Notes: a model not told the origin generated them from the letters alone. 32,000 nt of DNA from Candidatus Methanophagaceae archaeon (GCA_003194425.1 PQXB01000001.1:1155125-1187124), one strand, 5' to 3'. Shown: positions 22-29,874, counted from the first letter of the stretch. Made by a program: numbers and translations.

Positions 22-1464
22 TCATTTTCTGCCGCTGGCTGCTGCGTTGCAGGCTGTTGTGTTAAGAGAGAAAACAGGAAGTTTCTGCGGTGCGTCGGGC
101 TCTTTACCGCTAAACAACTCTTCAATCGTAAAAATCTGCGTCTTCGGGTACTTGCTACCGAACGAATCTTTGAAGTCGCCGTTTTTTGCCGCCTCCTCGA
201 TCATCGGTCGTGTCGCGGGTTCTAAAGTTAAGAAGAAGCCCATTTCCGCCTTCTCGCGTTCTACGACCGCGTTGAGCTCTCGGATTTGGCTGACTCCGAC
301 TTTACCGCTCTTAACTTGAACGACCGCCTTCTTTGTCGCCCCGCCGTCGTTGAAGTAGTAGAAGCCGTCGATTCCCGTGTCCGCTCCTTTCTTCCCCTTC
401 TTCCCTTTTTTCCCACCACCGCCGTAGGGTCTCGCGCCGACGAGCGAGAGCGCCCACCACTGAAACTGGTAGCGGTTCTGCGTTGCCAACGCCTTGGCGC
501 CGGCTAAATCTTTTGGCTCACCGACTACTTTGAACTGGATTTCTGGGAAGTTGCGTTTCAGCCGCTCTTTTACCACCGCGATCGCAAGGTGCGTGATGTC
601 AATCCCAATCCAGCGGCGACCGAGTTTCTCGGCAACTGCTACTGCAGTCCCGCAGCCGCAGAACGGGTCTAAAACCGTGTCGCCCTCGTTTGAGGACGCT
701 TTAATAATTCGCTCTAACAGCGCTTCGGGCTTCTGCGTTCGGTAAGGCAGCCACTCATTCTTTTTGTAACTCGTCAGTCTCGGCAGGTCTGCCCACCAGT
801 CATTTACAGGCGTCCCCTTCTCCAGATCCAACGCCCTGCCCCCAGACAACAGGCTGTGCCTCGGCGTTTTTAAAGTCCCCTCGCTGTAAGGTCTGAATTC
901 GGGATTAAACACCCATTCGTCGCCCTTCGTGTACCTAAAAATGACATCGTGCTTTCTCGGAAAGTCTCGTCTCGGAATTCCACCACCGCTGTAGCACCAA
1001 ACAATCTCGTTCCTGAAATTTCTCTTCCCGAAGACCGCGTCCAAAACGATTTTTAAATAATGGCTCGCCGTCGGGTCGCAGTGCAGGTAAATCGAACCCG
1101 TCTCCTTCAAGACCCGCTTCAACTCCAGCAGCCGAATGCACATCATCGTTAGGTAAGCCAAAATGTCGTTCTCGCGAACCGCCCGCCTCAACGAGAGCAT
1201 TAAATCCACTACCTCCGACGGCGCAGACTCCACGATTTCCTGAAACGCCCGCTCTATTTCCGCAGTCCAGTGCCAAGTGTCCTCAAAAGCGGTAATTTGT
1301 GATTTTGACTGCTCGCCTGTCCCCGGCTCTTTGAAGAGGACGTTGTAGGTGGCGTTTGAGTTGAACGGCGGGTCTAAATAAATTAGGTCTACCGACTCGG
1401 GGGGAAGGTACTCGCGGAGAACCGCTAAATTGTCGCCGTAGTAGAGGACGCTTGTTTCGGTCAT
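22..1464 (-). CDS. DNA methyltransferase (beta-class, N6-adenine or N4-cytosine) fused to a C-terminal Mrr-like restriction-endonuclease domain
   Basis: 480-aa ORF with an ATG at 1462-1464. Motif IV 'LIYLDPPFNSN' lies near the N-terminus and AdoMet motif I 'VLDPFCGCGTAVAVAEKLGRRWIGIDI' lies downstream; this IV-then-I order defines the beta class. The C-terminal 'TGIDGFYYF...AVVQVKSGK...FFLT' resembles the Mrr catalytic core (D...QxK). A Gly/Lys (GKK)3 linker separates the two parts. Confidence 0.85.
   Translation of the reverse strand: MTETSVLYYGDNLAVLREYLPPESVDLIYLDPPFNSNATYNVLFKEPGTGEQSKSQITAFEDTWHWTAEIERAFQEIVESAPSEVVDLMLSLRRAVRENDILAYLTMMCIRLLELKRVLKETGSIYLHCDPTASHYLKIVLDAVFGKRNFRNEIVWCYSGGGIPRRDFPRKHDVIFRYTKGDEWVFNPEFRPYSEGTLKTPRHSLLSGGRALDLEKGTPVNDWWADLPRLTSYKKNEWLPYRTQKPEALLERIIKASSNEGDTVLDPFCGCGTAVAVAEKLGRRWIGIDITHLAIAVVKERLKRNFPEIQFKVVGEPKDLAGAKALATQNRYQFQWWALSLVGARPYGGGGKKGKKGKKGADTGIDGFYYFNDGGATKKAVVQVKSGKVGVSQIRELNAVVEREKAEMGFFLTLEPATRPMIEEAAKNGDFKDSFGSKYPKTQIFTIEELFSGKEPDAPQKLPVFSLNTTACNAAASGRK
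386..413. repeat. 9-nt tandem repeat x3 (encodes GKK GKK GKK on the minus strand) in the MTase-Mrr linker
   Basis: Plus strand 'tcctttcttccccttcttccctttttt'. The reverse complement reads GGN-AAR-AAR three times. Confidence 0.7.
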
Positions 1465-1518
1465 TTTTACGATTTTTTCTTGCCTTGAATTTATTTTTGC
1501 TCTGATTAAAGTTAAATT

Positions 1519-2277
1519 ATGGACAGCGTAGGAAAAGCGGTGGTTGTCTTCTCTTTGTTGGGCGTTTGCGGGTTGTACGGGCTTTCCTTAACCTCGCTTG
1601 TAGAGCCGCCGTTCGTTCCGTTGGAGGCGGTTGCGAGCGGTGGGGGAAGAGGTTGGGGAAGCGGTGGGGGAAGCGGTGGGGGAAGCGGTGGGGGAAGTGG
1701 AGGCTGCGGCGAGTACGAGGGGCAACTTGTGCGGACGAGAGGCGTTCTCACTGACCTCCGCACTACCGCAGCTGGAGACCTGCTCACGATTAAAGCGAAC
1801 GGGAGCGAGTTGCTGGTTTTTGTCTTTCTTGATTCGGCGGTGGGTGCGACCGCAGCGAGTGCGAGGAAGGAGCGGGAACGTTTAAACCTGGGCTACGGCG
1901 ACGAAGTAGTGGTTCAGGGCAAGGTGCAGTCGTACAGGGGCAGGTGCGAAATCGTAGCCGAAAAGGTAGGTTGTAAAAATGAGACTGCCAATTCTTCCGT
2001 CTCCGTCTTTGTCTCGCAGGTAGCGGAGAACCCCGAGGAGTACGAGGGCAGGAGGGTAAGCGTTGTAGGTTGCGTTGGGAACGTTTACAAGAACATTTTT
2101 TATCTCGGCGACGAGAAGGGCAAGTATTTAATGAGGGTGAATCTGAAGTCCTTTTCAATTTCACGCCCTGAGTTGAAAATGCAGAAAGGGGAGAAAATAA
2201 TCGCAGAGGGCGTCTTCGCGTACAACGCCGAGAATTTGAGGTACGAGTTGAACTTGGTCTCGGTTTCAGAGATTTAA
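1519..2277 (+). CDS. Membrane-anchored protein with two putative OB-fold-like halves (function unknown)
   Basis: 252-aa ORF with an ATG at 1519. It has a hydrophobic N-terminal segment 'AVVVFSLLGVCGLYGLSL', then a (GGGS)n repeat, then two similar beta-rich halves ('VVVQGKVQSYRGRCEIVAEKV', 'VSVVGCVGNVYKNIFYLGD') reminiscent of OB-fold anticodon-binding-type domains. The functional call is weak. Confidence 0.5.
   Translation: MDSVGKAVVVFSLLGVCGLYGLSLTSLVEPPFVPLEAVASGGGRGWGSGGGSGGGSGGGSGGCGEYEGQLVRTRGVLTDLRTTAAGDLLTIKANGSELLVFVFLDSAVGATAASARKERERLNLGYGDEVVVQGKVQSYRGRCEIVAEKVGCKNETANSSVSVFVSQVAENPEEYEGRRVSVVGCVGNVYKNIFYLGDEKGKYLMRVNLKSFSISRPELKMQKGEKIIAEGVFAYNAENLRYELNLVSVSEI
1639..1698. repeat. 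12-nt tandem repeat x5 (ggtgggggaagc), encodes (GGGS)n
   Basis: Units lie at 1639, 1651, 1663, 1675 and 1687, with 0-2 mismatches per unit. Confidence 0.95.
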
Positions 2278-2278
2278 A

Positions 2279-2812
2279 TTACACGTCTAAAACGACCCTC
2301 GCCTTCCAAACCCCGCTCTTCTCGTCCTTCTTCACCTCCATCATATTGTAAGTCACCGCTTTAATTATTATTCCAGATTCGTGCCTGGCAGGGTCGAATC
2401 GCCCGCCGCTGCACTTTCCGTTTATGCTAAACTCCGCAGCCTCTCCTCCTTCTGAACCCTCCCCTGCTTCCCCCCCTGCTTCCCCTACTCGTTCTTCTTC
2501 TCGTTCTTCTTCTCCTGCCTGCACTTTTATCTCAAACCGCTTCGGTACCAGCAACTCCGACTCGAAGAGGAAAATCATCTCGTCCAGCCAATCAAACATC
2601 AAACTGCAGAGGTCCTCCGATTTTATCTTCACCTCCTTCTCCACCACCTCCTCTCCTTCCCCCTCTCCCACCTCCTCCACATTCGTCATAAAGCTGAAAG
2701 TAGCGAGAGCAGCGTTGGCAAACAACTCCTCCAGCGTCTCGCCACACGCCTCAAACCCCACATCTGACGGGTGCTCGAAGTATTTGAATTTATTTTTGAA
2801 TCTGCTCTGCAT
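2279..2812 (-). CDS. Archease (RtcB/tRNA-modification chaperone family) with an acidic low-complexity insert
   Basis: 177 aa. The N-terminal 'YFEHPSDVGFEACGETLEELFANAALA' and C-terminal 'IIKAVTYNMMEV' match the archease signature (FEHTADxG...; KAVTYH). An insert 'EEEREEERVGEAGGEAGEGSEGGEAAE' lies between the conserved blocks. Confidence 0.8.
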   Translation of the reverse strand: MQSRFKNKFKYFEHPSDVGFEACGETLEELFANAALATFSFMTNVEEVGEGEGEEVVEKEVKIKSEDLCSLMFDWLDEMIFLFESELLVPKRFEIKVQAGEEEREEERVGEAGGEAGEGSEGGEAAEFSINGKCSGGRFDPARHESGIIIKAVTYNMMEVKKDEKSGVWKARVVLDV

Positions 2813-2848
2813 ATTTACTTACTTGCGTTCTTAATATTTAAACGAACG

Positions 2849-4000
2849 ATGAAAGCGATTCTCGCACTCGAAGACGGGACAGTGGTGGAAGGCGAAGGCT
2901 GGGGAGCGGAGGGGACGGCGTTGGGCGAACTCGTCTTTGCAACGCCGTTTACGGGCTACGAGGAAGCCCTGACCGACCCCTCGTACAAGGGGCAGATTTT
3001 GATGTTCACCTACCCGCTCGTCGGGAACTACGGCGTGAGCGGTGCTAAATTCCAGTCAGACGGCGTGAAAGTGGAGGGTTTCGTGGTGCGTGAGCGGTGC
3101 GATTTTCCCTCGCATTTCAAGAGCAAGCGAAGCCTCAACCAGTTCCTACAGGACGAGGGCGTGCCTGCGGTGAGCGGAATTGACACGAGAATGCTGACGA
3201 TAAAGACGAGGAGGTACGGCACAATGAAAGCGTGCTTGAGTGTGGGAGCGAGAGGGGGAGCGAGAGGGAGAGCGGGAGCGAGAGCGGGGGAGGGGGAAGA
3301 GAAGACCGAGATTTTGGAACTCGCAAGAAAGCAGTCCGAGATTTCAGAACTCGACTTGGTGGAGCGGGTTACTTGCAGGAAGCCTTACCGAATAAAAGGC
3401 AGGGGGAAAAGGGTGGCGGTAATTGACTTGGGCGTGAAACGGAACATTCTGAAGAGCCTGGCAGAGCGGGGGTTGGACATTTTCGTCTTCCCTGCGAACG
3501 CGGCGGAGTCTGAGATTCGTGGTTCTGAGCCCGACGCGTTGCTGCTCTCGAACGGACCTGGTGACCCGAAGCGAGGCGCTGCTGGAAATTTAACGCGAGT
3601 GGTAAAGAACTTTGCAGGCGAGATTCCGATTTTCGGGATTTGTTTGGGTCTGCAAATAATTGCGCTTGCCTTTGGTTGCGAGACCTACAAACTGAAGTTC
3701 GGGCACCGCGGTGCGAACCAACCCGTGAAAGACCTCAAGAGCGGGCGTGTTTTCATAACTTCCCAGAACCACGGCTTCGCAGTCAAGAAGGACTCGCTGG
3801 ACGGTGCGTTGGACGGTGGAGGAACAGCAGCAGGACTGACGCAGGTGAACGCGAACGACGGCACGGTGGAGGGCTTCGAGGACGCTTACTTGGGTGTGAA
3901 ATGCGTGCAGTACCACCCAGAGGCGAGCCCAGGTCCGTGGGACACCGAGAAGGCGTTCTTTGACGATTTGGCGAAGGGAGGCAGCTCAGGATTTGTCTAA
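2849..4000 (+). CDS. carA: Carbamoyl-phosphate synthase small (glutaminase) subunit
   Basis: The N-terminal 'MKAILALEDGTVVEGEGWGAEG...GELVFATPFTGYEEALTDPSYKGQILMFTYPLVGNYG' is typical CarA. The triad-type GATase has 'GICLGLQ' and 'QYHPEA'. The start was moved to the ATG at 2849 because the ORF-track start at 2771 adds a non-conserved hydrophobic leader. It contains a Gly/Ala/Arg low-complexity insert. Confidence 0.9.
   Translation: MKAILALEDGTVVEGEGWGAEGTALGELVFATPFTGYEEALTDPSYKGQILMFTYPLVGNYGVSGAKFQSDGVKVEGFVVRERCDFPSHFKSKRSLNQFLQDEGVPAVSGIDTRMLTIKTRRYGTMKACLSVGARGGARGRAGARAGEGEEKTEILELARKQSEISELDLVERVTCRKPYRIKGRGKRVAVIDLGVKRNILKSLAERGLDIFVFPANAAESEIRGSEPDALLLSNGPGDPKRGAAGNLTRVVKNFAGEIPIFGICLGLQIIALAFGCETYKLKFGHRGANQPVKDLKSGRVFITSQNHGFAVKKDSLDGALDGGGTAAGLTQVNANDGTVEGFEDAYLGVKCVQYHPEASPGPWDTEKAFFDDLAKGGSSGFV
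3246..3293. repeat. Imperfect ~12-nt tandem repeat (gagcgagagggg) inside carA, encodes GARGGARGRAGARAG
   Basis: The units read by eye are gagcgagagggg, gagcgagaggga, gagcgggagcga and gagcggggga. Confidence 0.7.
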
Positions 4001-5116
4001 CAGCCGTGCCACAGCGAAAGCCGGAAAAGCCGCCGATATTTTCGCACCGTAGACCGAAGCGAGCGAGACGAACTCAAGATTCACACGCTCCGCAGCCGCC
4101 TTCGCAACGAAATCCCCGATTCCCGCAGAGACCACACGCTCCAGCCCGTACTCCTCTCTCTGCCGCTTCAACTCCGCCGCCAACTCCGCCACCTGCACTT
4201 CCTTCACCTGCTCTGCAATTCCAACAACGCTCTCCTCACCAAGCTCCTCAAGGTCGCTGCAGACCACCCGAGCCAACCTTCGCAGCGCAGCTCGCCGACT
4301 TTTCGCTCCCTCTCCCTCTCCCTCTCCTTCTCCCTTCCACTCCTCTCCTTCTTCCTTCCACCCCTCCCCTCCCGCTCGGTCAGGGCTTTCGCAGCGGTAG
4401 TCCTCCTCGCTCAAGTCCCCAAGTACGAGGTAAGCGTCCGCCGTGATTGCGAAGAACTCCGCCGCAGTCCTGCATTCCTCTTTTTCCTTGCTTTCTCCCC
4501 CTCGCTCACCTACCCTAACTCGCCGCAGCAGCGTAGCAACACTTGTTCTCAAGACGCCCGAATAAATCAGTTCGTCGGATTTCAGCCGCTCGAGGTCGCT
4601 TCTCTTCGCCTTTATTTCCCCACCCGCGATTGGAATCACGTCGGTTGTGGTGCTACCAACGTCCACAAAAATCGCGTCTTTGCCGCCGCAGCCTCCTCCC
4701 TCTGAGACCGAGACGAACTTTGCAGAGGCGAGCCAATTCGTAGCCGCGAACGAGAGCGGGTCTCTCTCAACTGCAGAGCCGTCCCTGAAGACGCAGTCCG
4801 TCCCGAAGAATTTAAGTCCTTCAAATCCAAAGACTGAGGTTAGAATATTTTTTATCCGCAGAACACCCTCCCTCCTCGTCTCAAAACAGTCGCACAACTC
4901 TCCTGTCATCACCACCCCCACTGCTTCAATTCCTGCCCCTCCCTCTTTCCCCCCTTCCTCTTTCTCCCCTCCTTCTGTCTCAAAGTTTTGTTTCACCCTT
5001 AACAGCACGTCGTCCAGAACCGCACTGCTCTTCCAGAGCGGAGCGTAAATTGAAAATGCGTCGTCTGGAGTTGCTACTTTCGTGTTCGCCCCGCCCACAT
5101 CTACGCCTACAATCAT
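3986..5116 (-). CDS. Hydantoinase/oxoprolinase-like ASKHA ATPase of the H4MPT-associated type
   Basis: 376 aa. Phosphate-1 motif 'MIVGVDVGGANTKVA' and 'IFVDVGSTTTDVIPI' are typical of the hydantoinase_A-like family found next to C1/methanopterin or methanofuran genes in methanogen-like archaea. It carries two Glu/Gly/Trp/Lys low-complexity inserts. Its start overlaps the upstream gene stop (ATGA at 5113-5116). Confidence 0.6.
   Translation of the reverse strand: MIVGVDVGGANTKVATPDDAFSIYAPLWKSSAVLDDVLLRVKQNFETEGGEKEEGGKEGGAGIEAVGVVMTGELCDCFETRREGVLRIKNILTSVFGFEGLKFFGTDCVFRDGSAVERDPLSFAATNWLASAKFVSVSEGGGCGGKDAIFVDVGSTTTDVIPIAGGEIKAKRSDLERLKSDELIYSGVLRTSVATLLRRVRVGERGGESKEKEECRTAAEFFAITADAYLVLGDLSEEDYRCESPDRAGGEGWKEEGEEWKGEGEGEGEGAKSRRAALRRLARVVCSDLEELGEESVVGIAEQVKEVQVAELAAELKRQREEYGLERVVSAGIGDFVAKAAAERVNLEFVSLASVYGAKISAAFPAFAVARLLDKS
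4306..4375. repeat. Pyrimidine-rich (ctccct)n and ~21-nt imperfect repeats inside the ASKHA gene, encoding EGWKEEGEEWKGEGEGEGEG
   Basis: 'ctccctctccctctccctctccttctcccttccactcctctccttcttccttccacccctcccctccc'. Confidence 0.7.
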
Positions 5117-5835
5117 TTCTCCTTCTCCTTGCTCTTTCCCCCCTCTCTAACAAACAAAAGCGGGAAAATTATGTCGCTCAGGCAGCAGGGAAACCAGACC
5201 GAGAGAAACAAAATGAAAAACACAAAAGGCAGCAAAGAAAAACCCGCACCGCCAAAACCACCGCCAAAACCACCGACAAAACCACCGCCAAGACCACCGA
5301 CAAAACCACTGCCAAAACCAAGACCGAACGCGGTGAGGTAGAAGAGCGACGCCCAAGTGCTCAGCAGGACGTGCCCTGCGTGCGGAAACTTGGTCGCGGG
5401 GCGGAAGTAGGCGATTAAAATGCCGAGAACCGCGAGCGGGTTCACGAGCCACCACTTCTCGACGAAGCCCAGGTGAAACTCCATTTCCGCACCTAAAAGA
5501 GTCCCGCCGAGGTAGGGGAAAAAAATGTCGCTCAGCGTGGCGATTCCGACCGAGCCGAGGTAGCCGACTAAAAAGACCTGCCAGCCTTTACCTCGGTGCA
5601 GCCGAAACATTCCCGCGGTCACGAGCGCACTCAAGACCACGTGAATCGGGTGAAGGGTGTAGAAAATTGTCTCCGAGAGATTTTGCGAGAGGCGGGTCGT
5701 GAAAAACATTAGAACGATTCCTGTAACCGCGCCGAAAGAAGTGAACGGGGCGTGCCTCACTAATTCCCTGCTAATTAGCCTTGATTTTTCGTGCAGCCTC
5801 GTCCTGAAGGGTTTTGCGTACTCGTTAATTTGCAT
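5113..5835 (-). CDS. Polytopic integral membrane protein with conserved His motifs (possible metal transporter; function unknown)
   Basis: 240 aa with multiple hydrophobic segments. Two His motifs are present: 'LHPIHVVLSALVTAGMF' and 'KFPHAGHVLLSTWASLF'. There is a Gly/Phe/Val-rich tandem-repeat insert near the C-terminus. Confidence 0.6.
   Translation of the reverse strand: MQINEYAKPFRTRLHEKSRLISRELVRHAPFTSFGAVTGIVLMFFTTRLSQNLSETIFYTLHPIHVVLSALVTAGMFRLHRGKGWQVFLVGYLGSVGIATLSDIFFPYLGGTLLGAEMEFHLGFVEKWWLVNPLAVLGILIAYFRPATKFPHAGHVLLSTWASLFYLTAFGLGFGSGFVGGLGGGFVGGFGGGFGGAGFSLLPFVFFILFLSVWFPCCLSDIIFPLLFVREGGKSKEKEK
5247..5318. repeat. 12-nt tandem repeat x6 (caccgccaaaac), encodes a Gly/Phe/Val-rich segment of the membrane protein
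   Basis: Units lie at 5247, 5259, 5271, 5283, 5295 and 5307 with 0-2 mismatches. Confidence 0.9.
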
Positions 5836-5848: not shown

Positions 5849-7156
5849 TTATTTTCTAATAATTGCGTCTATTCCTAAAATAAAAGAATACGGCGCGTAG
5901 GTCTTCACCTTCCTCGCATTCAGGATTTCCAACTGGACCTCACGCCCGCCCGCTCGCTTGCTCGCCTCGTTTATTCCTGCAGCCAACTTCTCCTTCGCCT
6001 TCTTTATCGCAGTCTCAAGAGAAAGGGAAGGGGGAGAAGAAGAAGGAGAAGGAGTGGGAGAGGGAGAAGGAGAGGGAGAAGAGGTTTCAAGAGTGTAGAA
6101 ATGAATTGTCCCAGCACGCAGTTTGAGCATTCCAAGAGCCTCGTTAAGAAAGAGGTGGGCGCTCTTTGGCAAGTTCATAATTATTCGGTCTGCAGAGCCT
6201 CTGAACCGCTCTTTCTCGTTCCCGCTCTCGTTCCCGCTCTCGTTCCCGCTCTCGTTCCCGCTCTCACTCTCGCCTTTGAAGACCTCTCTTGCGTCGCCCA
6301 GCACCGCCTCAATTTTTCCCTCACCCACGCGGTTCAATTTTATATTCTCCTTAAGGTACCGCACTGCCTCGGGATTGATTTCAATTGCGGTAACGTGGCT
6401 GTGGGGTGCTCGTTTAGCGATTTGAACCGCGAAGGAGCCGACGCCTGCAAACATATCAATTATTTTTTCTGCCTCGTTCTCTCTCTCGCTGCGTTCTACC
6501 TGCTCCACCACTCTGGCTCGTTCGGTTGCGAGGCGGGGGTTGAAATAGACTTTGTTGAGGTCGAGTTTGAACCTGCAGCCGTTCTCCTTGTGGGTTGTTT
6601 CTGTCCTGCACTCGCCTGCGATTATTTTCAGCCGCCGCTGCCTGAAGACGCCTTCGACGGGCGAGGTCTGCTTTGCGACGACTTTTATGTTCTTGTGCAG
6701 GCTCAAAATTGCTCGTGCTTGTGCTGCGACCCGCTCAAGACTCTCGTCAATTTCGGCAGTCTCGCGGTCGCGGTGGCGGTCGCGGTGGCGGTCGCGGTGG
6801 CGGTCGCGGTGGCGGTCGCGGTGGCGGTCGGAGTCGGGACCGCGGTCACCAGTCAGCACCGCAATGTCGCCCACGACCTCGTAAGCAGGCTTGAACCCAA
6901 CCAGGTCTTCTACGCTCCTTCTTGGCTCTGAAATCTCAAACTCTCGTGTTTCTTGGGTTAGAGTTAGAGACTCCTGCTGCTCTAACCGTCGCACGAGCGG
7001 CAGAAAAATGAAATCCGGGTCCGAGATTATTTTTGCGTCGGTTCTCAGCAGTTTGCGCTCTTTCAAAGCCCTCCTGACCTCTTCTCCTCGCCGCTTCTCC
7101 ACCTTTACGCAAAGCAAAGTCGCACTCTTCAAATTCGCCCTCTTTTCCTTCTTCAT
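5849..7156 (-). CDS. trm5: tRNA (guanine37-N1)-methyltransferase, Trm5/Taw22 family
   Basis: 'YEVVGDIAVL', 'VYFNPRLATER', the AdoMet motif 'IDMFAGVGSFAVQIA' and 'RIIMNLP' are Trm5 (Met_10) hallmarks. The start was set at the ATG at 7154-7156. The ORF-track start at 7222 is a TTG that would overlap the divergent neighbour. Three separate tandem-repeat inserts lie inside. Confidence 0.85.
   Translation of the reverse strand: MKKEKRANLKSATLLCVKVEKRRGEEVRRALKERKLLRTDAKIISDPDFIFLPLVRRLEQQESLTLTQETREFEISEPRRSVEDLVGFKPAYEVVGDIAVLTGDRGPDSDRHRDRHRDRHRDRHRDRHRDRETAEIDESLERVAAQARAILSLHKNIKVVAKQTSPVEGVFRQRRLKIIAGECRTETTHKENGCRFKLDLNKVYFNPRLATERARVVEQVERSERENEAEKIIDMFAGVGSFAVQIAKRAPHSHVTAIEINPEAVRYLKENIKLNRVGEGKIEAVLGDAREVFKGESESGNESGNESGNESGNEKERFRGSADRIIMNLPKSAHLFLNEALGMLKLRAGTIHFYTLETSSPSPSPSPTPSPSSSPPSLSLETAIKKAKEKLAAGINEASKRAGGREVQLEILNARKVKTYAPYSFILGIDAIIRK
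6021..6083. repeat. Purine-rich imperfect 6-nt repeats (ggagaa/ggagag), encode SPSPSPSPTPSPSSSPPS in Trm5
   Basis: 'gaaagggaagggggagaagaagaaggagaaggagtgggagagggagaaggagagggagaagag'. Confidence 0.75.
6209..6268. repeat. 12-nt tandem repeat x4-5 (cccgctctcgtt), encodes (GNES)4 in Trm5
   Basis: Perfect units lie at 6221, 6233 and 6245. Degenerate units lie at 6209 and 6257. Confidence 0.95.
6763..6828. repeat. 12-nt tandem repeat x5.5 (cgcggtggcggt), encodes (DRHR)n in Trm5
   Basis: Five perfect units lie at 6769, 6781, 6793, 6805 and 6817, with a leading half unit at 6763. Confidence 0.97.
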
Positions 7157-8195: not shown

Positions 8196-8202
8196 GGCGG
8201 CG

Positions 8203-15286: not shown

Positions 15287-15301
15287 TTTTGTGCTCCTCA
15301 C

Positions 15302-17372
<2,071 letters not shown>

Positions 17373-17709: not shown

Positions 17710-17739
17710 GAAGATAAAAAATTTAAGGTGGAGGGGAAA

Positions 17740-17846: not shown

Positions 17847-17855
17847 ACCCGTGGA

Positions 17856-21320: not shown

Positions 21321-21343
21321 CAAACATTTTTAAAATCATTTGT

Positions 21344-21353
21344 GTTTATAAAC
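21344..21353 (-). promoter_or_regulatory. TATA-like box upstream of the Dam-family MTase / nuclease pair
   Basis: The minus strand reads 'gtttataaac', 24-33 nt upstream of the ATG at 21320. This suggests that Dam plus nuclease form their own transcription unit, separate from the upstream MTase. Confidence 0.4.
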
Positions 21354-21389
21354 CTCCAGCGAGTCTATCCAGTGGTTTCTGTTCAGTGC

Positions 21390-24294: not shown

Positions 24295-25782
24295 ATGAAC
24301 CTACGGGTGAGAAAGATTTACGAGGCTTTGTTTGCACTTGAGGACTTGCGGGAGATTTTTAGGCAGGCGTTGCCTACAGCCGCAGCCACAGGAACAGCCA
24401 CAACCGCAGCCACAGGAACAGCCCTCGACGAAAGCGGCGAGGAAGAACTCGCAGACGGCATTGCCCGTGTAGAAGCCATTTTGAGAGAATTGAAATATGG
24501 AAAGGGAAGTCCGATTAAGCACATTGACGCCGAGGGAAGGATTGAACTGCGGACGCGAGAGGAGGAGTTCATAAATATTAATTCCATTCAACCCGGCGGG
24601 CGACTGACGCCGGCAGCGAGGAAAGCACTCATCGCGTACGGCGACGGCTACTCGGTCTGCGACAAATGTCTGGGCGGCAGGCTTGACGGAATTAGAAAAC
24701 CGCCGGTGGAAGAATTTCACGCAGAACTCGCTGAGTTCGTTGGAATGGACGAGGTAAGGGTCGTGCCGGGCGCGAGACGCGGGTTTCAGGCGGTTGCCTC
24801 CTCGCTGCTTGGGAAACGGACGGGCGAGGGGACGGGTAAAGGGACGGGCAAAGGGACGGGCAAAGGGACGGGCAAAGGGACGGGCGAGGGCGACATCGTC
24901 TTGGTCTCGGATTTGGCGCACTACACGGAGTTTCTCGCGGTAGAACTTGCGGGCGGCGTGGTTAGAGAAGTGCCTTCGGGCGAGGCGAAGAAAATTACCG
25001 GAGACGCAGTGGCGGAGGAGGTGGAGCGAGTGAAGTCAGAGACAGGCAGACTGCCAAAACTCATTATTCTCGAGCATTTTGACTACAACTTCGGGAACGA
25101 GCACGACGTCTACGGCGTAGGGAAGGTTGCGAAGGACTACGGCGTCCCGTTTCTCTACAACGGCGCCTACTCGGTCGGGATGGTGCCAGTGGACGGTAAG
25201 AAAATCGGGGCGGACTTCGTCGTCGGCTCGGGGCACAAAGGAATGGCTGCGGTCGCTCCCTCGGGCATTCTCGCAGTCACTGAAGAGTGGGCGCCGAAAA
25301 TATTCAGGAGCAGCCAAATCGTCGGCGACCTCACGGGCAGGCGGTTCGGGAACAAGGAGCCGGAGATGCTGGGTTGCACTTTGATGGGTGGGACTCTGCT
25401 CTCATTGATGGCTTCGTTTCCGACGGTGAAGGAGCGAGTGAATCGGTGGGACGAGGAGGTGAAAAAGTCAAACTACTTCTGCCGCGAGTTCCTACGCGTC
25501 GCGGGCAGCAAAATCTCGAGCGAGCTCCCCCGCAAGCACACGCTCACAAAGGTCGACACCCGCGAGAGCTTCGACACGGTCGCGAGGACGCACAAGCGCC
25601 GCGGGTTCTTTCTCAGCGACGAACTGAAGCGAAGAGGAGTCGTTGGCGAGTTCGCAGGCTCGACGCGGGTCTGGAAATTCAACACCTACGGCTTGAACTG
25701 GGCAAGGCTGAAATATTTGGGCGAGGTGTTCGTGGAAATCGCGGAGAAGTACGGGCTGGTGGAGGGGGCTGGTGGAGGGTAG
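24295..25782 (+). CDS. O-phosphoseryl-tRNA(Cys):Cys-tRNA synthase (SepCysS) with N-terminal extension
   Basis: 'NINSIQPGGRLTPAARKAL', 'HYTEFLAVELAGG' and the PLP-lysine region 'VVGSGHKGMAAVAPSGILAV' are present. The ~95-aa N-terminal extension and a (GTGK)n insert are not part of the conserved core. Confidence 0.85.
   Translation: MNLRVRKIYEALFALEDLREIFRQALPTAAATGTATTAATGTALDESGEEELADGIARVEAILRELKYGKGSPIKHIDAEGRIELRTREEEFININSIQPGGRLTPAARKALIAYGDGYSVCDKCLGGRLDGIRKPPVEEFHAELAEFVGMDEVRVVPGARRGFQAVASSLLGKRTGEGTGKGTGKGTGKGTGKGTGEGDIVLVSDLAHYTEFLAVELAGGVVREVPSGEAKKITGDAVAEEVERVKSETGRLPKLIILEHFDYNFGNEHDVYGVGKVAKDYGVPFLYNGAYSVGMVPVDGKKIGADFVVGSGHKGMAAVAPSGILAVTEEWAPKIFRSSQIVGDLTGRRFGNKEPEMLGCTLMGGTLLSLMASFPTVKERVNRWDEEVKKSNYFCREFLRVAGSKISSELPRKHTLTKVDTRESFDTVARTHKRRGFFLSDELKRRGVVGEFAGSTRVWKFNTYGLNWARLKYLGEVFVEIAEKYGLVEGAGGG
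24381..24422. repeat. 24-nt tandem repeat x1.75 (cgcagccacaggaacagccacaac), encodes AATGTATT AATGTA in the SepCysS N-terminal extension
   Basis: Copies lie at 24381-24404 and 24405-24422. Confidence 0.9.
24817..24888. repeat. 12-nt tandem repeat x6 (gggacgggcaaa), encodes (GTGK)n in SepCysS
   Basis: Units lie at 24817, 24829, 24841, 24853, 24865 and 24877. The three central units are perfect. Confidence 0.97.
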
Positions 25783-25872
25783 GGGGAGGGGTAAGGGAAG
25801 GGTAGAGCAGGGCAGGAGAGCCAGCAGGGTAAAAAACTTTTAGCAGAAACTCTTTCTTTAGAAGAGAGTGCA

Positions 25873-25944
25873 GCCCCAGTGTGGTAAGGGAAATCCGTTG
25901 GGCTTGCGGAGCCTAACATCCGGGTTCGACTCCCGGCTGGGGCA
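25873..25944 (+). tRNA. tRNA-Arg (anticodon GCG)
   Basis: Hand-folded. The acceptor GCCCCAG pairs with CTGGGGC, with discriminator A. The anticodon stem TGGGC/GCCTA has loop TTGCGGA (anticodon GCG). The T-arm is CCGGG-TTCGACT-CCCGG. The variable loop is 4 nt. The D-stem is weak (3 bp plus a mismatch). Confidence 0.8.
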
Positions 25945-25954
25945 CTGCACTGCT

Positions 25955-25989
25955 TACCTGCGGTGCTACCTGCCGACTACCTGCGGTGC
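25955..25989. repeat. 12+11+12-nt direct repeat (tacctgcggtgc / tacctgccgac / tacctgcggtgc) straddling the pyrK-pyrD stop codon
   Basis: Read directly from the sequence. The middle unit is 11 nt and contains the stop codon complement (cta at 25977-25979). Confidence 0.85.
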
Positions 25990-27965
25990 GACTCGCCAAC
26001 CAACTCCTCAATATTTCGGTACCCCCCAGCCGCCAGAAACCGCTTTAAATCATTCTTCAACCGCGAGAAAATCCCAAACCCTCCGCCAGCTCCGCTACTA
26101 CTCACTAACGCACTCCCCACCTGAAAGAGACTCGCACCGTTCTTCGCGTACTCCACGACGTCTTTAGCGGAAAAAATACCGCCCACCGCAAAGACAGGAA
26201 TTTTTAACTCCTTGTAGAGAGCGAAGACGACGCTTTTACCGCCAACCGTCAGGTCTGCACCCGATTTCCCACCGTAGCCCGTTGGGTTGCCCAAAAAAGG
26301 AATCTCGAGCGTAGGCTCTAGTGGTCTGGAAATTACAGTGTTAACAGCGGTGATCGCGTCGGCACCCGCCCTCTCCGCAGTCAGTGCCAGCCCCGCGGGG
26401 TCGCCGACATTTGGCGAGATTTTTACTGCGAGCGGAACGCCTTTCGGCTCTGCAACGGCTCGCACCGCTCTTACAATTTTTGTCAGCAGTTTCGGGTCGT
26501 TCTCGACCGCGACGAAGTCCGAGTGCGGGCAGGAAGCGTTGAACTCGAGCATTTCTACAGCTGCAGGGGCAGGGGGGACAGAGAGTTCAACCGCGGTCTT
26601 CGCCACTTCTCGGCACTCCTCCACGCTCCTGCCAAAAATGCTCAGCACCAACGGCACCTCCGCAGCCGCGGTCTTAAACTCCACTACCTCCGCGCCGTAA
26701 TTTCTTATCCCTGGATTCGGAAGTCCCATCGCGTTCACGTAGTTGTGCAAGCCACGCGGGGACGACGGGAGTTCAAAGAAAGTGGGGTTGGGGTAGCCCT
26801 CGCGCTCCGCCAGCCCGACCGACTTCGTTACTACCGCTCCCGCACCCGCCACCGCGTACCTGTAAAGCAGCCTCCCGCTCAAGCCGAACCCCGCTGCGTT
26901 CGCAAGTGGGTTGGGAAACTTAATTCCGCAGACCTCGGTCTTCAAGAGCGGTTCGTCTTCGGGCGTGAAATGCGGAGGAGGAGGAGGGGGGAGTGGAGGA
27001 GGGAGTGGAGGAGGGAGTGGAGGAGAAGAAGGAGGAGGCGGAATTGAAAACAACTCGTTTGGAGCAGGCGGGTGAACCGGAACCCTTTTACCGCTCCTCT
27101 CCCGTCGCCACCTGCCAAACTCTGTCTTTTCCAACTGAACCGCGTCGAAGACTGGGCCGTCTTTGCAGACCCTGTACCCCCCGAGGTCGCAAGACCCGCA
27201 AGCACCGCAGCTGCATTTTACAATTCGCTCCACCGAGACCTGTGTAGGAATTCGCTCCCTCCTTGCAATTTCGCAAACACGCGCCAGCATCAACTCAGGA
27301 CCGCACGCCAAGATCTGCTCAAATCTCTCTCCTGACGCCAGCACTTCCTCCAACAACTCCGTAACCAAGCCCCTGTAACTGTTTTTGTAACTGTAACCGC
27401 AACCAGGACTGCGAGAGCCGTCCTCAGTGGCGACCTTGACCTCACACCCGAGTTCGGAAAATTCCTTCAAATACAAAAGGTCTGCACTACTCTTCGCACC
27501 TTCCAAGACCACCACTTCTTGCCCCAATTCTCTCGCTCTCCGTGCTGCGAACCGCAGCGGTGCCGCTCCGTAGCCGCCTGCAACCACGCAAATCCTCCCT
27601 TCGCTCCTCCCTTCGCTCCTCCCTTCGCTCCCTCCGTGCCCGTGCAGTGCGAACCCCCTACCGTAAGGACCTCTCAAGCCCACCAAATCCCCGACCTGTT
27701 TTTGATGCAAACTGTGCGTGCAGTCGCCGACATCTGCGATCGCGACCTCCACTTCTCCTGCTTCTTCTCCTTCACCTGAAGGCGTCGCACCAGCGTCCGC
27801 AACCGAGATCGGAATCTCGTCTACCCCCGGATTCCAAACCATCACGAACTGACCCGGTTCGCTCTCTCGAGCAATCTCGTCCGAGCGAAACTTAAATATC
27901 TTTACTTCTCGGCTCGCTCTTTTTACCGCCACTATTTTGTGCAGCCTCGGAATGTTGAATGTCAT
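25977..27965 (-). CDS. pyrK-pyrD: Fused dihydroorotate dehydrogenase 1B: electron-transfer subunit (PyrK) plus catalytic subunit (PyrD) in one ORF
   Basis: 662 aa. Residues 1 to about 300 are PyrK ('PGQFVMVWNPGVDEIPISV' and the 2Fe-2S motif 'CSCGACGSCDLGGYRVCKDGPVF'). Residues about 345-662 are PyrD ('CGIKFPNPLANAAGFG', 'EFNASCPH', 'GGKSG', 'VGGI'). They are joined by a Pro-rich linker 'PPPPSSPPLPPPLPPPLPPPPPPH' encoded by a 12-nt tandem repeat. Confidence 0.85.
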   Translation of the reverse strand: MTFNIPRLHKIVAVKRASREVKIFKFRSDEIARESEPGQFVMVWNPGVDEIPISVADAGATPSGEGEEAGEVEVAIADVGDCTHSLHQKQVGDLVGLRGPYGRGFALHGHGGSEGRSEGRSEGRICVVAGGYGAAPLRFAARRARELGQEVVVLEGAKSSADLLYLKEFSELGCEVKVATEDGSRSPGCGYSYKNSYRGLVTELLEEVLASGERFEQILACGPELMLARVCEIARRERIPTQVSVERIVKCSCGACGSCDLGGYRVCKDGPVFDAVQLEKTEFGRWRRERSGKRVPVHPPAPNELFSIPPPPSSPPLPPPLPPPLPPPPPPHFTPEDEPLLKTEVCGIKFPNPLANAAGFGLSGRLLYRYAVAGAGAVVTKSVGLAEREGYPNPTFFELPSSPRGLHNYVNAMGLPNPGIRNYGAEVVEFKTAAAEVPLVLSIFGRSVEECREVAKTAVELSVPPAPAAVEMLEFNASCPHSDFVAVENDPKLLTKIVRAVRAVAEPKGVPLAVKISPNVGDPAGLALTAERAGADAITAVNTVISRPLEPTLEIPFLGNPTGYGGKSGADLTVGGKSVVFALYKELKIPVFAVGGIFSAKDVVEYAKNGASLFQVGSALVSSSGAGGGFGIFSRLKNDLKRFLAAGGYRNIEELVGESHRR
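26973..27040. repeat. 12-nt tandem repeat x3 (gagtggaggagg) within a purine-rich tract, encodes the PPPL-rich PyrK-PyrD linker
   Basis: Units lie at 26991, 27003 and 27015, flanked by (gga/ggg) runs. Confidence 0.95.
27593..27628. repeat. 12-nt perfect tandem repeat x3 (tcctcccttcgc), encodes (GRSE)3 in the PyrK part
   Basis: Units lie at 27593, 27605 and 27617. Confidence 0.97.
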
Positions 27966-27966
27966 T

Positions 27967-29874
27967 TCAGACCTCCTTTCCTCTAAGAAGCGACCGCCTG
28001 CGGCAGTGCTCCCTCACAATGTCCGACCTGCTGATTATTCCTACCAACTCCTTCTCACCTTCTTCTCCTCCGCCCTTCACCACTGGCAACCGCCCGATAT
28101 TGTAAGTATTCATTTTGTACAAAACCTCTTCCAAAAACTCGTCCGGATACGCCACCACAACCTCCTGCTTGCAGACTTGCTTTACTTGCCTGTTCCCCGC
28201 CCCCGCCTCTCTCTGCTTCTCCAAATCCATCACACTCGTTATTCCTATCATTTTCTTTCCTGCTCCTGTTCCTCCTGCTCCTGTTCCTCCTGCTCCTGTT
28301 CCTCCTGTTCCTCCTGCTCCTGCCTCCGCGTCAACAACCGGGAACGAAATGTGCCCAGTCTCCTCCGCAAAAAGAATCCCCTCCTCAACCGTCTTCTCCC
28401 CAGAAATCGTCAACACCTCCTTCGTGCAAGCGTCCTTCACTTTTATCCCCTCCAGAATGTCCTCCACAAATTCTCGCCTGTGTGCCTGCGACTCTCTCCT
28501 CGTCGTCTCCTGCTTCTCGTAAATCGTCACTTCCCCAGAAAGAGTGTAAGCCACCGCCGAAGTGAGCATCAAAGGCACCAGGAGGCTGTAACTCCCTGCC
28601 ATCTCGGAAATCATCAGAATCGCAGCAATCGGCACCTTCGCCACGCCCGAGAAGAACGCTGCCATTCCTACGAGCACAAACGCCGAGACCGTCAGCTCGG
28701 TTACTACCTGCGGGAAGAAGAGGTGGAACAGGCCGCCGAAGAAACCGCCCAACATCGCTCCAATCACGAGCGAGGGTGCAAACACGCCTCCGCTACCACC
28801 CGAGCCAATCGTAAACGAAGTCGCAAAAATCTTGACAACCGCAACCACAAGCATCAAAACCAGCAACTCGCCGAGCGGCAGTTCTTGGCTCAGGGCAGAC
28901 TGAACGAAGCCGTAGCCCGCCCCGAGAACCCCGTCCAACGCTCGCGGTCTCCAAGAGCCGACTGCCAACGCAACCGCACCGACCAACACCCCGCCAAGAG
29001 CGGGCTTCAAGTGTCTCGGAACTTTCAGCCTCTTGAAAACATCCCGCAACCCGTAAAATACTTTCACATAAAAAATCCCTACCACCGCACAGACCACGCC
29101 CAGCAGGGCGTAAAAAACCAGTTCGTAGGGGTGTCTAAAAATGTAGGGCTGAGTCGCAAAAATCGGTCCCCAGCCAACGCCGGGAAACGAGCAGAAGACT
29201 GAATAGGCAACCACTGAAGACACAACCGCGGGAACCATCGATTCCATTTCAAAATCCCGCTTGTACAAGACTTCAATCCCGAACAACGCCCCGCCTAGAG
29301 GTGCTTTAAAAATCGCACCGACGCCCGCTGCAGCACCGCAAATCATCATCGCCCGCCGCTCACGCTCGTCCAACTTCAGCCAACCCGCCAAGAACGACCC
29401 AAAACCCGCACCGATTTGTGCAGTTGGTCCCTCCCTACCCGCGCTTCCGCCCGAGCCAATCGTGACTGCAGACGCCAGTGTCTTGACCAGCGGCACGCGT
29501 TTTCTTATTTCGCCTTTCTTGTTGTGAAACGCGTCGATTACAGCGTCCGTTCCGTGCCCTTCTGACTCGGGAGCGAAAGTGTAAATTAGCAAGCCTGCGA
29601 GGAGACCGCCGACTGCAGGAACCGCAGCAAGCACCCACAAACGGAACGGTCTCTCGACAGTCTCGACAGGTAACAGCAGAGCACCAGAAACGCCTGATTC
29701 ACCAGCCGGCGAGGAGGGGTAGTAGCCAGCGAGGTAGCCCTGAAAGAACACGCCCGTAGCTTGCAGGAGCAAAAAAAAGGCAACCGCACCGAGCCCTGCC
29801 ACTACTCCGATCACAACGCTCCAGAGAACCCACTGCTGTAAGTGTCGCAGTTCACTCGTGCCGTGTTTTTTCAT
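27967..29874 (-). CDS. ClC-family voltage-gated chloride channel/antiporter with C-terminal CBS pair
   Basis: 635 aa. Selectivity motifs 'GSGGSAGREGPTAQIG' and 'GGVFAPSLVIGA' are present. The C-terminal CBS-like repeats are interrupted by a (GAGGT)n insert. Confidence 0.9.
   Translation of the reverse strand: MKKHGTSELRHLQQWVLWSVVIGVVAGLGAVAFFLLLQATGVFFQGYLAGYYPSSPAGESGVSGALLLPVETVERPFRLWVLAAVPAVGGLLAGLLIYTFAPESEGHGTDAVIDAFHNKKGEIRKRVPLVKTLASAVTIGSGGSAGREGPTAQIGAGFGSFLAGWLKLDERERRAMMICGAAAGVGAIFKAPLGGALFGIEVLYKRDFEMESMVPAVVSSVVAYSVFCSFPGVGWGPIFATQPYIFRHPYELVFYALLGVVCAVVGIFYVKVFYGLRDVFKRLKVPRHLKPALGGVLVGAVALAVGSWRPRALDGVLGAGYGFVQSALSQELPLGELLVLMLVVAVVKIFATSFTIGSGGSGGVFAPSLVIGAMLGGFFGGLFHLFFPQVVTELTVSAFVLVGMAAFFSGVAKVPIAAILMISEMAGSYSLLVPLMLTSAVAYTLSGEVTIYEKQETTRRESQAHRREFVEDILEGIKVKDACTKEVLTISGEKTVEEGILFAEETGHISFPVVDAEAGAGGTGGTGAGGTGAGGTGAGKKMIGITSVMDLEKQREAGAGNRQVKQVCKQEVVVAYPDEFLEEVLYKMNTYNIGRLPVVKGGGEEGEKELVGIISRSDIVREHCRRRSLLRGKEV
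28259..28327. repeat. 15-nt tandem repeat x3 plus partial copies (cctgctcctgttcct), encodes GAGGTGGTGAGGTGAGGTGAG in the ClC CBS region
   Basis: Perfect units lie at 28259, 28274 and 28289, followed by 9-nt and 15-nt variants. Confidence 0.95.

Follow-up and report, generated by a model that had tools for sequence, protein, structure and literature searches.

Why should the genes for core enzymes of an archaeon be studded with short tandem repeats that keep the reading frame? The question is raised by a 32-kb stretch of DNA from a Candidatus Methanophagaceae archaeon (GCA_003194425.1, PQXB01000001.1:1155125-1187124), hereafter called the window, by which we mean the whole stretch that was analysed. 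An earlier note on this DNA had listed arrays, mostly with a 12-nt period, inside nearly every conserved housekeeping gene, and had proposed that they expanded recently. The data presented here indicate that the arrays are very probably coding minisatellites, or variable-number tandem repeats (VNTRs), which arise through tandem duplication and slippage at a high, lineage-specific rate in one species of anaerobic methanotrophic archaea (ANME) of the ANME-1a group, and which are filtered for reading frame and for sites where an insertion is tolerated.

The DNA of the window is chromosomal and derives from a metagenome-assembled genome (MAG) of ANME-1a (Methanophagaceae). It sits on a 1.19-Mb contig of an ANME-1 MAG and has a GC content of roughly 54%; two of its proteins are identical to NCBI entries PXF51874.1 and PXF51859.1 (Candidatus Methanophagaceae archaeon, locus tags C4B55_), and the closest relatives of its SepCysS, Trm5 and GyrB proteins are found in ANME-1/Methanophagales. 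In addition, the gene content (gyrA/B, carA, pyrK-pyrD, SepCysS, trm5 and tsr3) shows that the DNA is chromosomal and that no extrachromosomal element is involved. Pfam matches of the scanned open reading frames (ORFs) comprise an MTase-Mrr fusion, an OB-fold protein, archease, CarA, a hydantoinase_A-like ASKHA protein, Trm5, a DUF4349 protein, a radical-SAM protein and Tsr3. GyrB and PyrK-PyrD were identified by matches in the PDB, SepCysS by its homologues, and GyrA and ClC via Pfam marks on the genes of sibling contigs together with their source names.

Abundance and period of the tandem arrays

Arrays were called on the window with Tandem Repeats Finder (TRF), whose 69 rows were reduced to 49 non-redundant arrays; 26 of these reach a score of at least 50 and 12 a score of at least 75. 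TRF recovered all the arrays of the earlier note, either at the positions given there or a few bases away (6764-6830, 26983-27025 and 28258-28323 are among its calls), and translation places every one of them in frame. Arrays absent from that list were detected in archease (2461, 2488 and 2630), in the ASKHA protein (4936-4981), in GyrB (16474-16509) and in ClC (29652-29669). The period of the 12 top arrays (score of at least 75) is 12 nt in eight cases, 24 nt in two, and 15 and 21 nt in one case each.

The number of arrays expected by chance was estimated by shuffling codons inside each gene, over 200 rounds, with the intergenic DNA left unshuffled. Following this treatment the mean total was 11.5, compared to the 49 arrays observed, and what was left consisted mostly of the unshuffled intergenic arrays. 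Specifically, the 12 arrays scoring at least 75 compare with 0.01 after codon shuffling, and the 18 period-12 arrays with 0.97. As an external control, we used 1.33 Mb of gyrB neighbourhoods from 80 other prokaryotes, taken from a GTDB scan with GyrB (matches of at most 59% identity), in which arrays scoring at least 75 occur at a density of 0.28 per 10 kb, versus 3.75 per 10 kb in the window. When pooled controls of 2.26 Mb were considered, period 12 accounted for 6 of 194 arrays scoring at least 50, while in the window it makes up 10 of the 26 (odds ratio 19.6 in a Fisher test, p = 5e-7), and multi-copy arrays (at least three copies, score of at least 50) numbered 46, versus 10 in the 32 kb of the window. 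The enrichment in period-12 arrays is therefore strong against both codon shuffles and controls, and we conclude that the 12-nt preference is real, being only partly explained by the 6-nt substructure described below.

With respect to the genes involved, at least one array of score 50 or more was found in 13 of the 18 native genes, so that 'nearly every' gene, as the earlier note put it, is an overstatement. Arrays are lacking or weak in the radical-SAM, GNAT, CfbB-like, TtuA-like and MTase-Mrr genes, and the low-GC restriction-modification islands at 9273-11443 and 17856-22616 contain weak two-copy matches only.

Copy-number variation between strains

Fourteen contigs (L001, L082-L093 and L176) belong to the same species as the window, with a nucleotide identity to it of 97-99.5%. 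Thirteen of them (L001 and L082-L093) entered a census of insertions and deletions, and L176 was compared separately. These contigs differ almost only at the arrays, their flanks being collinear: 81 of the 107 gap events fall inside a TRF array or within 12 nt of one, and the others lie mostly in a divergent stretch of L086 (745-974) or in intergenic DNA, apart from a few in-frame indels of 6 or 9 nt in the SacI-like gene (10321-10326). Net length changes per array are unit multiples, with values of 12, 24, 36, 48, 15, 45, 18, 6 and 9 nt. Polymorphism was observed in 10 of the 11 covered arrays scoring at least 75, compared to 3 of the 22 scoring below 50; by adding the GyrB array, which differs in L176, and the GyrA array, which differs in L084 and L176, all 12 top arrays turn out to be polymorphic, changing by whole codons and for the most part by 12 nt or multiples of it.

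Protein clusters at 90% identity gave access to variants from NCBI, JGI, ENA and Logan assemblies that are 99-100% identical outside the arrays. In the SepCysS cluster, for instance, lengths of 483, 487, 491, 491, 495, 495, 499, 503 and 511 aa were recorded. The proposal of a recent expansion is thus supported by copy numbers that differ between strains with 99-100% identical flanking protein sequence.

The reading frame is respected throughout, as the earlier note had maintained. All the coding arrays scoring at least 55 have a period divisible by 3, compared to 3 of 9 intergenic arrays, and all net coding indels between strains are multiples of 3; periods of 10, 11 or 13 nt occur in a few coding rows only, which are weak two-copy matches. 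Since every coding allele is in frame, the loci do not behave as contingency or phase-variable genes, which would switch frame or promoter. Neither do they resemble CRISPR arrays, the units being contiguous, 6-24 nt long, placed inside ORFs and without unique spacers. On the contrary, the features of coding VNTRs or minisatellites are all present, namely an excess over chance, variation by whole units, a divisible-by-3 rule confined to ORFs, and absence from orthologues.

Absence from orthologues and position in the protein folds

The SepCysS protein of the window counts 495 aa, compared to 451 aa in most ANME-1, and the difference corresponds to its two arrays, which are gaps in every other aligned lineage, Methanothrix included. 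Similarly, Trm5 is 435 aa long versus about 356-365 aa, with its arrays facing gaps or short variable loops in 37 other ANME-1 sequences, and GyrB is 673 aa long versus 634-637 aa, its (GAGV)n array and a 9-aa insert being unique to the species among ANME-1, Alkanophagales and Methanoperedenaceae. Therefore, the repeated segments are not sequence conserved in unrelated archaea: they are missing from SepCysS, Trm5 and GyrB orthologues of other ANME-1, Alkanophagales, Methanoperedenaceae and Methanothrix. At the identical sites, other lineages carry unrelated inserts of their own (P0055 in SepCysS and P0264 in Trm5), which indicates that these sites are tolerant to insertion.

Structural models were obtained with AlphaFold2 (AF2) for SepCysS, based on a 63-sequence alignment (mean predicted local distance difference test score, pLDDT, 73.7), and for Trm5, whose model is weaker (mean pLDDT 63.4). 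All five modelled arrays, two in SepCysS and three in Trm5, are predicted as low-confidence coil. A low pLDDT is partly expected where alignment columns lack homologues, and the informative point is that the arrays are placed between secondary-structure elements. Ancient structural-repeat domains would be conserved and folded, while here orthologues lack the arrays and the models predict coil with pLDDT <50. In conclusion, AlphaFold models and domain boundaries together assign the inserts to predicted loops, linkers or tails.

Arrays in individual genes

In the following, allele lengths are given relative to the window. At the beginning of the window, the MTase-Mrr fusion protein (389-414, minus strand) contains a 9-nt unit in 2.9 copies, (GKK)3, with a weak TRF score of 38, and no other strain spans this locus. 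The OB-fold protein carries near its N-terminus (1636-1697, plus strand) 5.2 copies of a 12-nt unit, (GGGS)n (TRF 110), with alleles of -12, -24 and +12 nt in other strains. The archease gene, on the minus strand, includes two adjacent pairs of 12-nt units at 2461-2514, (GEAG)2 and (EEER)2 (TRF 50 and 54), the first of which is missing (-12 nt) in four of eight strains, and an imperfect 9/12-nt acidic tract at 2630-2680, EEVGEGEGEEVVEKEV (TRF 48), which is invariant in eight strains; the 136 positions of the archease Pfam model are stretched over 169 residues of the protein. In CarA, a 6/12/18-nt array, ARGGARGRAGARAGEGEE (3244-3297, plus strand; TRF 68), lies between the CPSase small-chain domain, ending at residue 156, and the GATase domain, starting at residue 217 according to Pfam, and is 24 nt shorter in two of eight strains.

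Two arrays were mapped in the ASKHA/hydantoinase_A-like protein (minus strand), whose Pfam match is broken into two stretches. The first, at 4306-4370, combines five copies of a 6-nt unit with 2.4 copies of a 21-nt unit, GEGWKEEGEEWKGEGEGEGEG (TRF 81), and shows net changes of -18, +3, +24 and +66 nt in other strains; the second, at 4936-4981, consists of 3.1 copies of a 15-nt unit, ETEGGEKEEGGKEGG (TRF 64), and is 48 nt shorter in one of ten strains. A membrane protein of unknown family (5247-5320, minus strand) has 6.2 copies of a 12-nt unit reading GFGS/GFVG/GLGG/GFGG (TRF 120); this array is 6 nt shorter in all ten other strains, and cluster members range from 224 to 240 aa.

Trm5, encoded on the minus strand, harbours three arrays, and its Pfam match is divided into two separate stretches. 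At 6033-6081 a 6/18-nt array, (SP)n, with a pyrimidine-rich coding strand (TRF 70), has alleles of +18, +21 and -3 nt; it replaces a shorter variable loop of the orthologues and is modelled as coil with pLDDT <50 at residues 364-370. Within the methyltransferase domain, at 6214-6265, 4.3 copies of a perfect 12-nt unit, (GNES)n (TRF 104, 100% match), are missing from the 37 other ANME-1 orthologues, vary by -12 and -24 nt between strains, and correspond to predicted coil with pLDDT <50 at residues 297-314. Finally, the perfect 12-nt array (DRHR)n at 6762-6830 (5.6 copies, TRF 134), which the orthologues lack, has alleles of -12, -18, -24 and -36 nt and is placed by the AF2 model between strand E98-101 and helix H125-153, with coil and low pLDDT at residues 105-134. 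ORFs that run antisense over the arrays, such as the one at 6101-6931 on the plus strand reading 'AVAVAV...', are by-products of the repeats.

On the plus strand, the DUF4349 protein carries 2.3 copies of a 15-nt unit, (EIDEK)2, at 7439-7472 (TRF 61), on the N-terminal side of the DUF4349 domain as bounded by Pfam; this duplication is missing (-15 nt) in five of seven strains. Tsr3 (12274-12350, minus strand) shows a duplicated 18-nt unit, QVGRER/QVGWER, together with a 13-nt match (TRF 65); the array is 18 nt shorter in two of four strains, and the Ribo_biogen_C Pfam match is found in two stretches.

Both gyrase subunits, encoded on the minus strand, are affected. The N-terminal tail of GyrA contains 2.6 copies of a perfect 24-nt unit, (EEEREGEG)n, at 15200-15262 (TRF 126), a unit that is single-copy in L084 and L176. 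In GyrB, a two-copy 18-nt duplication in the transducer domain, EKGEKDE (16474-16509; TRF 51), belongs to the 9-aa insert, which was found only in the window's species among 12 aligned GyrB proteins. In addition, a 12-nt unit in 5.6 copies, (GAGV)n (16611-16677; TRF 113), separates the ATPase and transducer parts, at a site that a PDB alignment locates between residues 211 and 215 of E. coli GyrB. Same-species GyrB proteins measure 661, 661, 665, 673 and 681 aa, and in L176 the array extends over 91 nt with a 24-nt unit, GAGVGVGV, compared to 67 nt of GAGV in the window. The 530-nt spacer upstream of gyrB hosts an intergenic cluster of four purine- or pyrimidine-rich arrays (17302-17683; periods 21, 13, 23 and 15 nt; TRF 54-66), unchanged in L001, the sole other strain that covers it.

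The order of the gyrase genes is itself variable. In the window gyrA directly follows gyrB (15286-15330), while in L176 a restriction-modification cassette (2552-5041), made of a CfrBI-like endonuclease and a 473-aa N6_N4 methyltransferase, is interposed, and in L084 the methyltransferase of this cassette is found upstream of gyrA (1-628). The gyrB-gyrA junction thus looks like a strain-variable insertion site.

SepCysS (plus strand) bears two arrays. The first, at 24376-24423, consists of two 24-nt copies, (AATGTATT)n (TRF 89), between the first two helices. It is missing from orthologues, is 48 nt longer in L082, and exists in at least four length alleles (+4, +8, +12 and +16 aa), besides unit variants, among 11 near-identical proteins; the AF2 model predicts coil with pLDDT <50 at residues 28-41, with helices H3-24 and H46-67 on either side. 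The second, six copies of a 12-nt unit, (GTGK)n, at 24814-24885 (TRF 116), occupies a loop of the catalytic domain, with coil and pLDDT <50 predicted at residues 176-196, between helix H160-171 and strand E201-205. Its copy number ranges from 2 to 7 units across same-species proteins, and the 451-aa orthologues do without it. Further arrays with periods of 13, 12 and 11 nt (TRF 41-54) cover the 3' end of the SepCysS gene and the spacer before pyrK-pyrD (25753-25989), a spacer where strain indels of -2 and +16 nt, neither of them a multiple of 3, were recorded.

On the minus strand at 25977-27965, a single protein of 662 aa unites PyrK (electron-transfer subunit) with PyrD (dihydroorotate dehydrogenase B) through (PPPL)n; L082 and L083 encode such a fusion too, with 667 and 659 aa, respectively. 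This linker array (26974-27042; 3.6 copies of a 12-nt unit, TRF 79), with a pyrimidine-rich coding strand, joins the PyrK-like part (residues 8-282) to the PyrD part (from residue 341) and has alleles of +3 and +15 nt. The PyrK part contains, in addition, a perfect 12-nt array in 3.2 copies, (GRSE)n (27593-27631; TRF 78), 12 nt shorter in L083. In ClC (minus strand), the C-terminal part with the CBS domains carries at residues 518-540 an array of 4.4 copies of a 15-nt unit (also called with periods of 6, 9 and 24 nt), (GGTGA)n (28258-28327; TRF 104). Among 15 ClC proteins of 617-636 aa, nearly all length variation falls in this array, the remainder being 99-100% identical to the window protein. 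A two-copy 9-nt duplication, VETVE (29652-29669; TRF 36), is present in the window protein only and lacking in the 14 other same-species proteins.

Low-GC islands and a divergent allele

A cassette of low GC content (40-44%) at 9273-11443 encodes a SacI-like restriction endonuclease and an N4/N6 methyltransferase. Every same-species contig that covers this cassette (L084-L088 and L176) has it, and it is nearly array-free, unlike its native neighbours. A second low-GC island (31-52%), at 17856-22616, comprises an LPG_synthase_TM membrane protein, a DUF6996/6997/7226 protein, a Dam-like methyltransferase and an N6_N4 methyltransferase. L082 contains this island as well; most of it is missing from L083 (compared over 17222-21854), where a methyltransferase is followed by Rad51/RadA and by an intein-containing ATP synthase subunit. 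In the MTase-Mrr gene, L086 is sharply divergent over about 230 nt (745-974), with many small out-of-frame alignment gaps, suggesting that this strain has another allele of the restriction-modification gene or a segment exchanged by recombination.

Phylogenetic extent

The density of arrays was compared across related lineages. In the window, arrays scoring at least 50 and at least 75 reach 8.1 and 3.75 per 10 kb, respectively, with 10 period-12 arrays at the lower threshold. Sixteen loci of other ANME-1, with SepCysS proteins 64-76% identical to that of the window, amount to 131 kb and yield 1.76 and 0.31 per 10 kb, with no period-12 array scoring at least 50; 63 loci of Methanothrix-type and other methanogens (794 kb) yield 0.35 and 0.13. 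Intermediate values (3.7 and 0.7 per 10 kb in 43 kb) were obtained for the ANME-1c 'Ca. Methanospirare jalkutatii', whose GyrB has Ser/Ala-rich inserts of its own that differ between two relatives. Therefore, the high array density is restricted to the window's lineage, other ANME-1 being at baseline. As a side observation, the ANME-1c locus L174 encodes a MutL homologue (7369-9204) about 0.8 kb upstream of gyrB.

The phenomenon reaches beyond the window: in the 9 kb past its end, same-species contigs contain five (L082) and three (L083) arrays scoring at least 75, which differ between the strains. The strong arrays of this segment have periods of 6, 9, 19, 35 and 37, so that the 12-nt dominance may be weaker genome-wide. 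Long-period intergenic arrays flank the gene of the formylmethanofuran:tetrahydromethanopterin (H4MPT) formyltransferase (5544-5663 and 6660-6772 in L082; 5662-5710 and 6724-6814 in L083). Their periods are 37 and 35 nt in L082 versus 19 and 25 nt in L083, so that the two strains differ in unit structure as well as in length.

A second repeat-rich lineage was considered in L110, a 12.6-kb locus of a more distant lineage (SepCysS 64% identical), and discarded: its 25 arrays are weak and mostly two-copy, with periods of 7-16 nt that are not divisible by 3, the duplications being nearly all exact, a pattern unlike that of the window.

Properties of the repeat units

The 26 unit sequences of arrays scoring at least 50 are locus-specific, with one pair of equal length within two mismatches, both members being G-rich. 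A shared mobile element or unit is thereby ruled out, and the recurrent local process postulated by the earlier note is favoured. Fractional copy numbers (such as 2.1-6.2) indicate that the arrays terminate in incomplete units.

In composition, the units are rich in G+A or in C+T, with 55-84% GC. Specifically, in 9 of the 12 period-12 units, 10 or more of the 12 bases of one strand are purines, or else pyrimidines, compared to a background of 11.5% in the same genes (p = 5e-7). The purine strand is usually the coding strand, with a reversed arrangement in (SP)n and (PPPL)n. Comparison of the two 6-nt halves within the 12-nt units gives 3.33 matching positions out of 6, versus 1.77 in random 12-mers and 2.43 in purine- or pyrimidine-rich random 12-mers; among coding arrays scoring at least 50, periods of 12, 18 and 24 outnumber those of 15 and 21 by 16 to 4; and higher-order units occur in GyrA (EEEREGEG), SepCysS (AATGTATT) and GyrB of L176 (GAGVGVGV). 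All together, 6-nt substructure, even codon numbers and higher-order units suggest a stepwise growth from 6 to 12 to 24 nt. The dominance of a four-codon period, considered unexplained by the earlier note, is thus partly accounted for by the 6-nt halves, which leave the greater expansion of 12 over 9 or 15 nt unaccounted for.

Two candidate causes were dismissed. A high GC content does not explain the arrays, as only 2 were found in 21 kb of L109 (57% GC) and ANME-1 loci at 47-49% GC have few. Thermophily, by which stable re-annealing at 60 C would underlie the 12-nt unit, was dropped, since an ANME-1a enrichment at 37 C (52% GC) fits the window better than a genome from 60 C (46% GC) (PMC5947290).

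Origin of the arrays

The reading that very probably accounts for these data is that of coding VNTRs produced at an elevated rate and sieved by selection, and it could operate in three steps. A stretch of 6-24 nt, mostly homopurine/homopyrimidine and often made of two similar 6-nt halves, would be duplicated in tandem; whole units would then be gained or lost via out-of-register pairing in replication or repair, the candidate events being polymerase slippage, microhomology-mediated tandem duplication and mis-processing of Okazaki flaps; finally, selection would purge the variants that break the frame or disturb the fold. Survivors would be expected to have a period divisible by 3, to sit in loops, inter-domain linkers or termini, and to encode small, charged or Pro/Gly-rich peptides, or Gly/Phe/Val in the membrane protein. 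The outcome would be fast-evolving, probably near-neutral disordered inserts in core enzymes. We infer the mechanism, the raised rate in the lineage and near-neutrality from these patterns, and slippage or tandem duplication at a raised rate is the most likely of the processes. Archaeal PolB and PolD slip in vitro, at least in the account of PMC4134008 relayed by PMC9879509, and a preprint ties microhomology-mediated tandem duplication to Okazaki fragment maturation (10.64898/2026.02.28.708716).

Several observations weigh against this explanation or limit its reach. Four of the 12 strongest arrays (GFGG, DRHR, GAGV and AATGTATT) have no purine/pyrimidine asymmetry. Simple slippage does not predict 12 nt over 9 or 15, and the 6-nt substructure explains part of this preference. 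Microhomology at young two-copy duplications is short (0-5 nt, from TRF copy fractions), which is weak for a microhomology-mediated process. Exact copy numbers and heterogeneity within populations rest on assemblies rather than on mapped reads, and with about 45 kb of the species' genome sampled, 'genome-wide' is an extrapolation. Finally, near-neutrality is an assumption, and the maintenance of arrays in 13 of 18 native genes could reflect positive selection.

This last point leads to the alternative that the arrays are functional and positively selected, as proposed for Borg repeats, serving to tune linkers, solubility, interactions or modification sites, with copy variation as an evolvability device. 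Besides the persistence of the arrays, it can draw on peptides that suit their context (GFGG in the membrane protein, PPPL in the fusion linker, G/S/T/E/K/R elsewhere), on a PyrK-PyrD fusion joined by an array, and on the argument that repeats in Borg ORFs are strongly selected (PMC9879509). Such a fit to context, however, is equally expected from purifying selection alone. Moreover, copy number is free among otherwise identical proteins, as the 2 to 7 units in SepCysS illustrate, so that the constraint on length is weak; the orthologues of all other lineages do without the inserts; and similar arrays exist in intergenic DNA. We therefore regard a selected function as improbable.

A far less probable explanation invokes composition only: low-complexity tracts would follow, with no special repeat process, from purine loading of the coding strand and from an abundance of Gly, Glu, Arg and Lys in the proteome. 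Coding strands are indeed 55-66% purine, and many of the weak arrays, with scores below 50, consist of imperfect tracts of acidic or basic residues, 19 of 22 being invariant between strains. However, codon shuffles that keep the composition leave 0.01 of the 12 arrays scoring at least 75, several arrays are perfect at the nucleotide level, differences between strains are exact unit multiples, and other ANME-1 and ANME-1c, with a similar lifestyle and partly similar composition, have far fewer arrays. The shuffles and the unit-sized polymorphism largely rule out this explanation; the weak invariant tracts may still be due to composition. As for assembly or binning artefacts of short-read metagenomes, their probability is negligible: although the data are all metagenome assemblies with many short same-species contigs, and assemblers collapse repeats and end contigs at them (PMC9879509), the arrays measure at most 91 nt, likely less than the presumed read lengths, the same loci carry them in independent NCBI, JGI, ENA and Logan assemblies of different samples, and the flanks are collinear without other indels, with all alleles in frame.

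Comparison with known systems

The housekeeping proteins of Plasmodium contain lineage-specific, fast-evolving and disordered inserts, placed in loops of conserved enzymes and attributed to slippage on biased DNA; Plasmodium, a eukaryote, has an AT-rich genome, and the inserts of its proteins are homopolymer-like and rich in Asn/Lys. By contrast, the arrays described here belong to an archaeon at 54% GC, are made of discrete four-codon units, and have a demonstrated copy-number variation between strains.

Among prokaryotes, coding tandem repeats are usually discussed for surface or contingency genes, the detailed archaeal case being that of the Borgs. Bacterial VNTRs are concentrated in surface, virulence or contingency genes. 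The arrays of the window resemble bacterial coding VNTRs and minisatellites produced by replication slippage or by microhomology-mediated tandem duplication, for example those of Burkholderia pseudomallei (10.64898/2026.02.28.708716), in their local tandem duplication followed by expansion or contraction, in their strain-variable copy number and in being in frame; they differ in density, with about 3 multi-copy arrays per 10 kb, and in having core enzymes as targets. Highly variable archaeal loci were too few for statistics in that study.

A survey of satellites in 142 archaea (Subirana and Messeguer 2019, PMC6749651) reported medians of 0-3 per Mb, with 21 of the 142 above 4 per Mb. As in the window, some Methanomicrobia are repeat-rich, and many periods divisible by 3 encode amino-acid repeats; in Methanosarcina, the satellites with long repeats (about 69, 100-150 and 246-264 nt) code for structural-domain repeats in surface-layer proteins. 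The window differs by having 7 arrays of at least four copies in 32 kb, located in enzymes and absent from orthologues, a comparison that is rough because the definitions differ. A published description of such repeats in ANME-1 genomes was not found, PMC5947290, PMC9894754, PMC13385816 and PMC5569505 making no mention of them.

What the present case adds is a cellular archaeal chromosome with Borg-like behaviour in gyrase, SepCysS, Trm5, CarA and PyrD, offering dozens of independent loci and many natural alleles in public metagenomes. It provides a natural experiment on the origin of archaeal repeats, with regard to unit-size preference, purine/pyrimidine asymmetry and higher-order units (GAGV to GAGVGVGV), and shows how much disordered insertion essential enzymes tolerate. 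From a practical point of view, the arrays are strain markers for this ANME-1a species and call for caution in MAG assembly, in length filters for orthologues and in protein clustering.

The closest parallel is represented by the tandem repeats of Borgs (Schoelmerich et al. 2023, PLoS Biol, PMC9879509). In both systems the repeats run head-to-tail with a unit unique to each locus and partial flanking repeats; they are divisible by 3 in ORFs and mostly not in intergenic DNA; they are absent from homologues, vary in unit number between close relatives, and encode peptides predicted to be disordered. A purine-type bias of the coding strand is also common to the two, and the host of the Borgs is likewise an anaerobic methane-oxidising archaeon. 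There are also differences. The arrays of the window lie on a cellular chromosome, with gyrase, SepCysS, CarA, PyrD and Trm5, and not on an extrachromosomal element, while the chromosomes of the Borg host Methanoperedens have almost no such repeats, at most 0.01% (PMC9879509). Their targets are mostly cytoplasmic housekeeping enzymes, compared to mainly extracellular or membrane proteins in Borgs; the bias is towards G+A rather than towards A, without the adenine enrichment of Borg repeats; unit length is smaller, 12 nt in most cases, and imperfect copies are found in many arrays. Under the definition used for Borgs (a perfect repeat with three or more units and a length of 50 nt or more), two arrays qualify, at 6214-6265 and 6764-6830, most of the others having a unit identity of 88-96% or fewer than three units.

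A broader proposal, which we put forward as possible yet doubtful, is that in one ANME-1a lineage the replication or repair machinery has itself entered a state of active repeat generation, with a preference for four-codon steps made of two 6-nt halves, through the same kind of process as in Borgs. If this were true, new disordered segments would be continuously created in essential enzymes, and repeats of the Borg type would have to be ascribed to certain ANME replisomes or repair deficiencies and not to Borgs as such.

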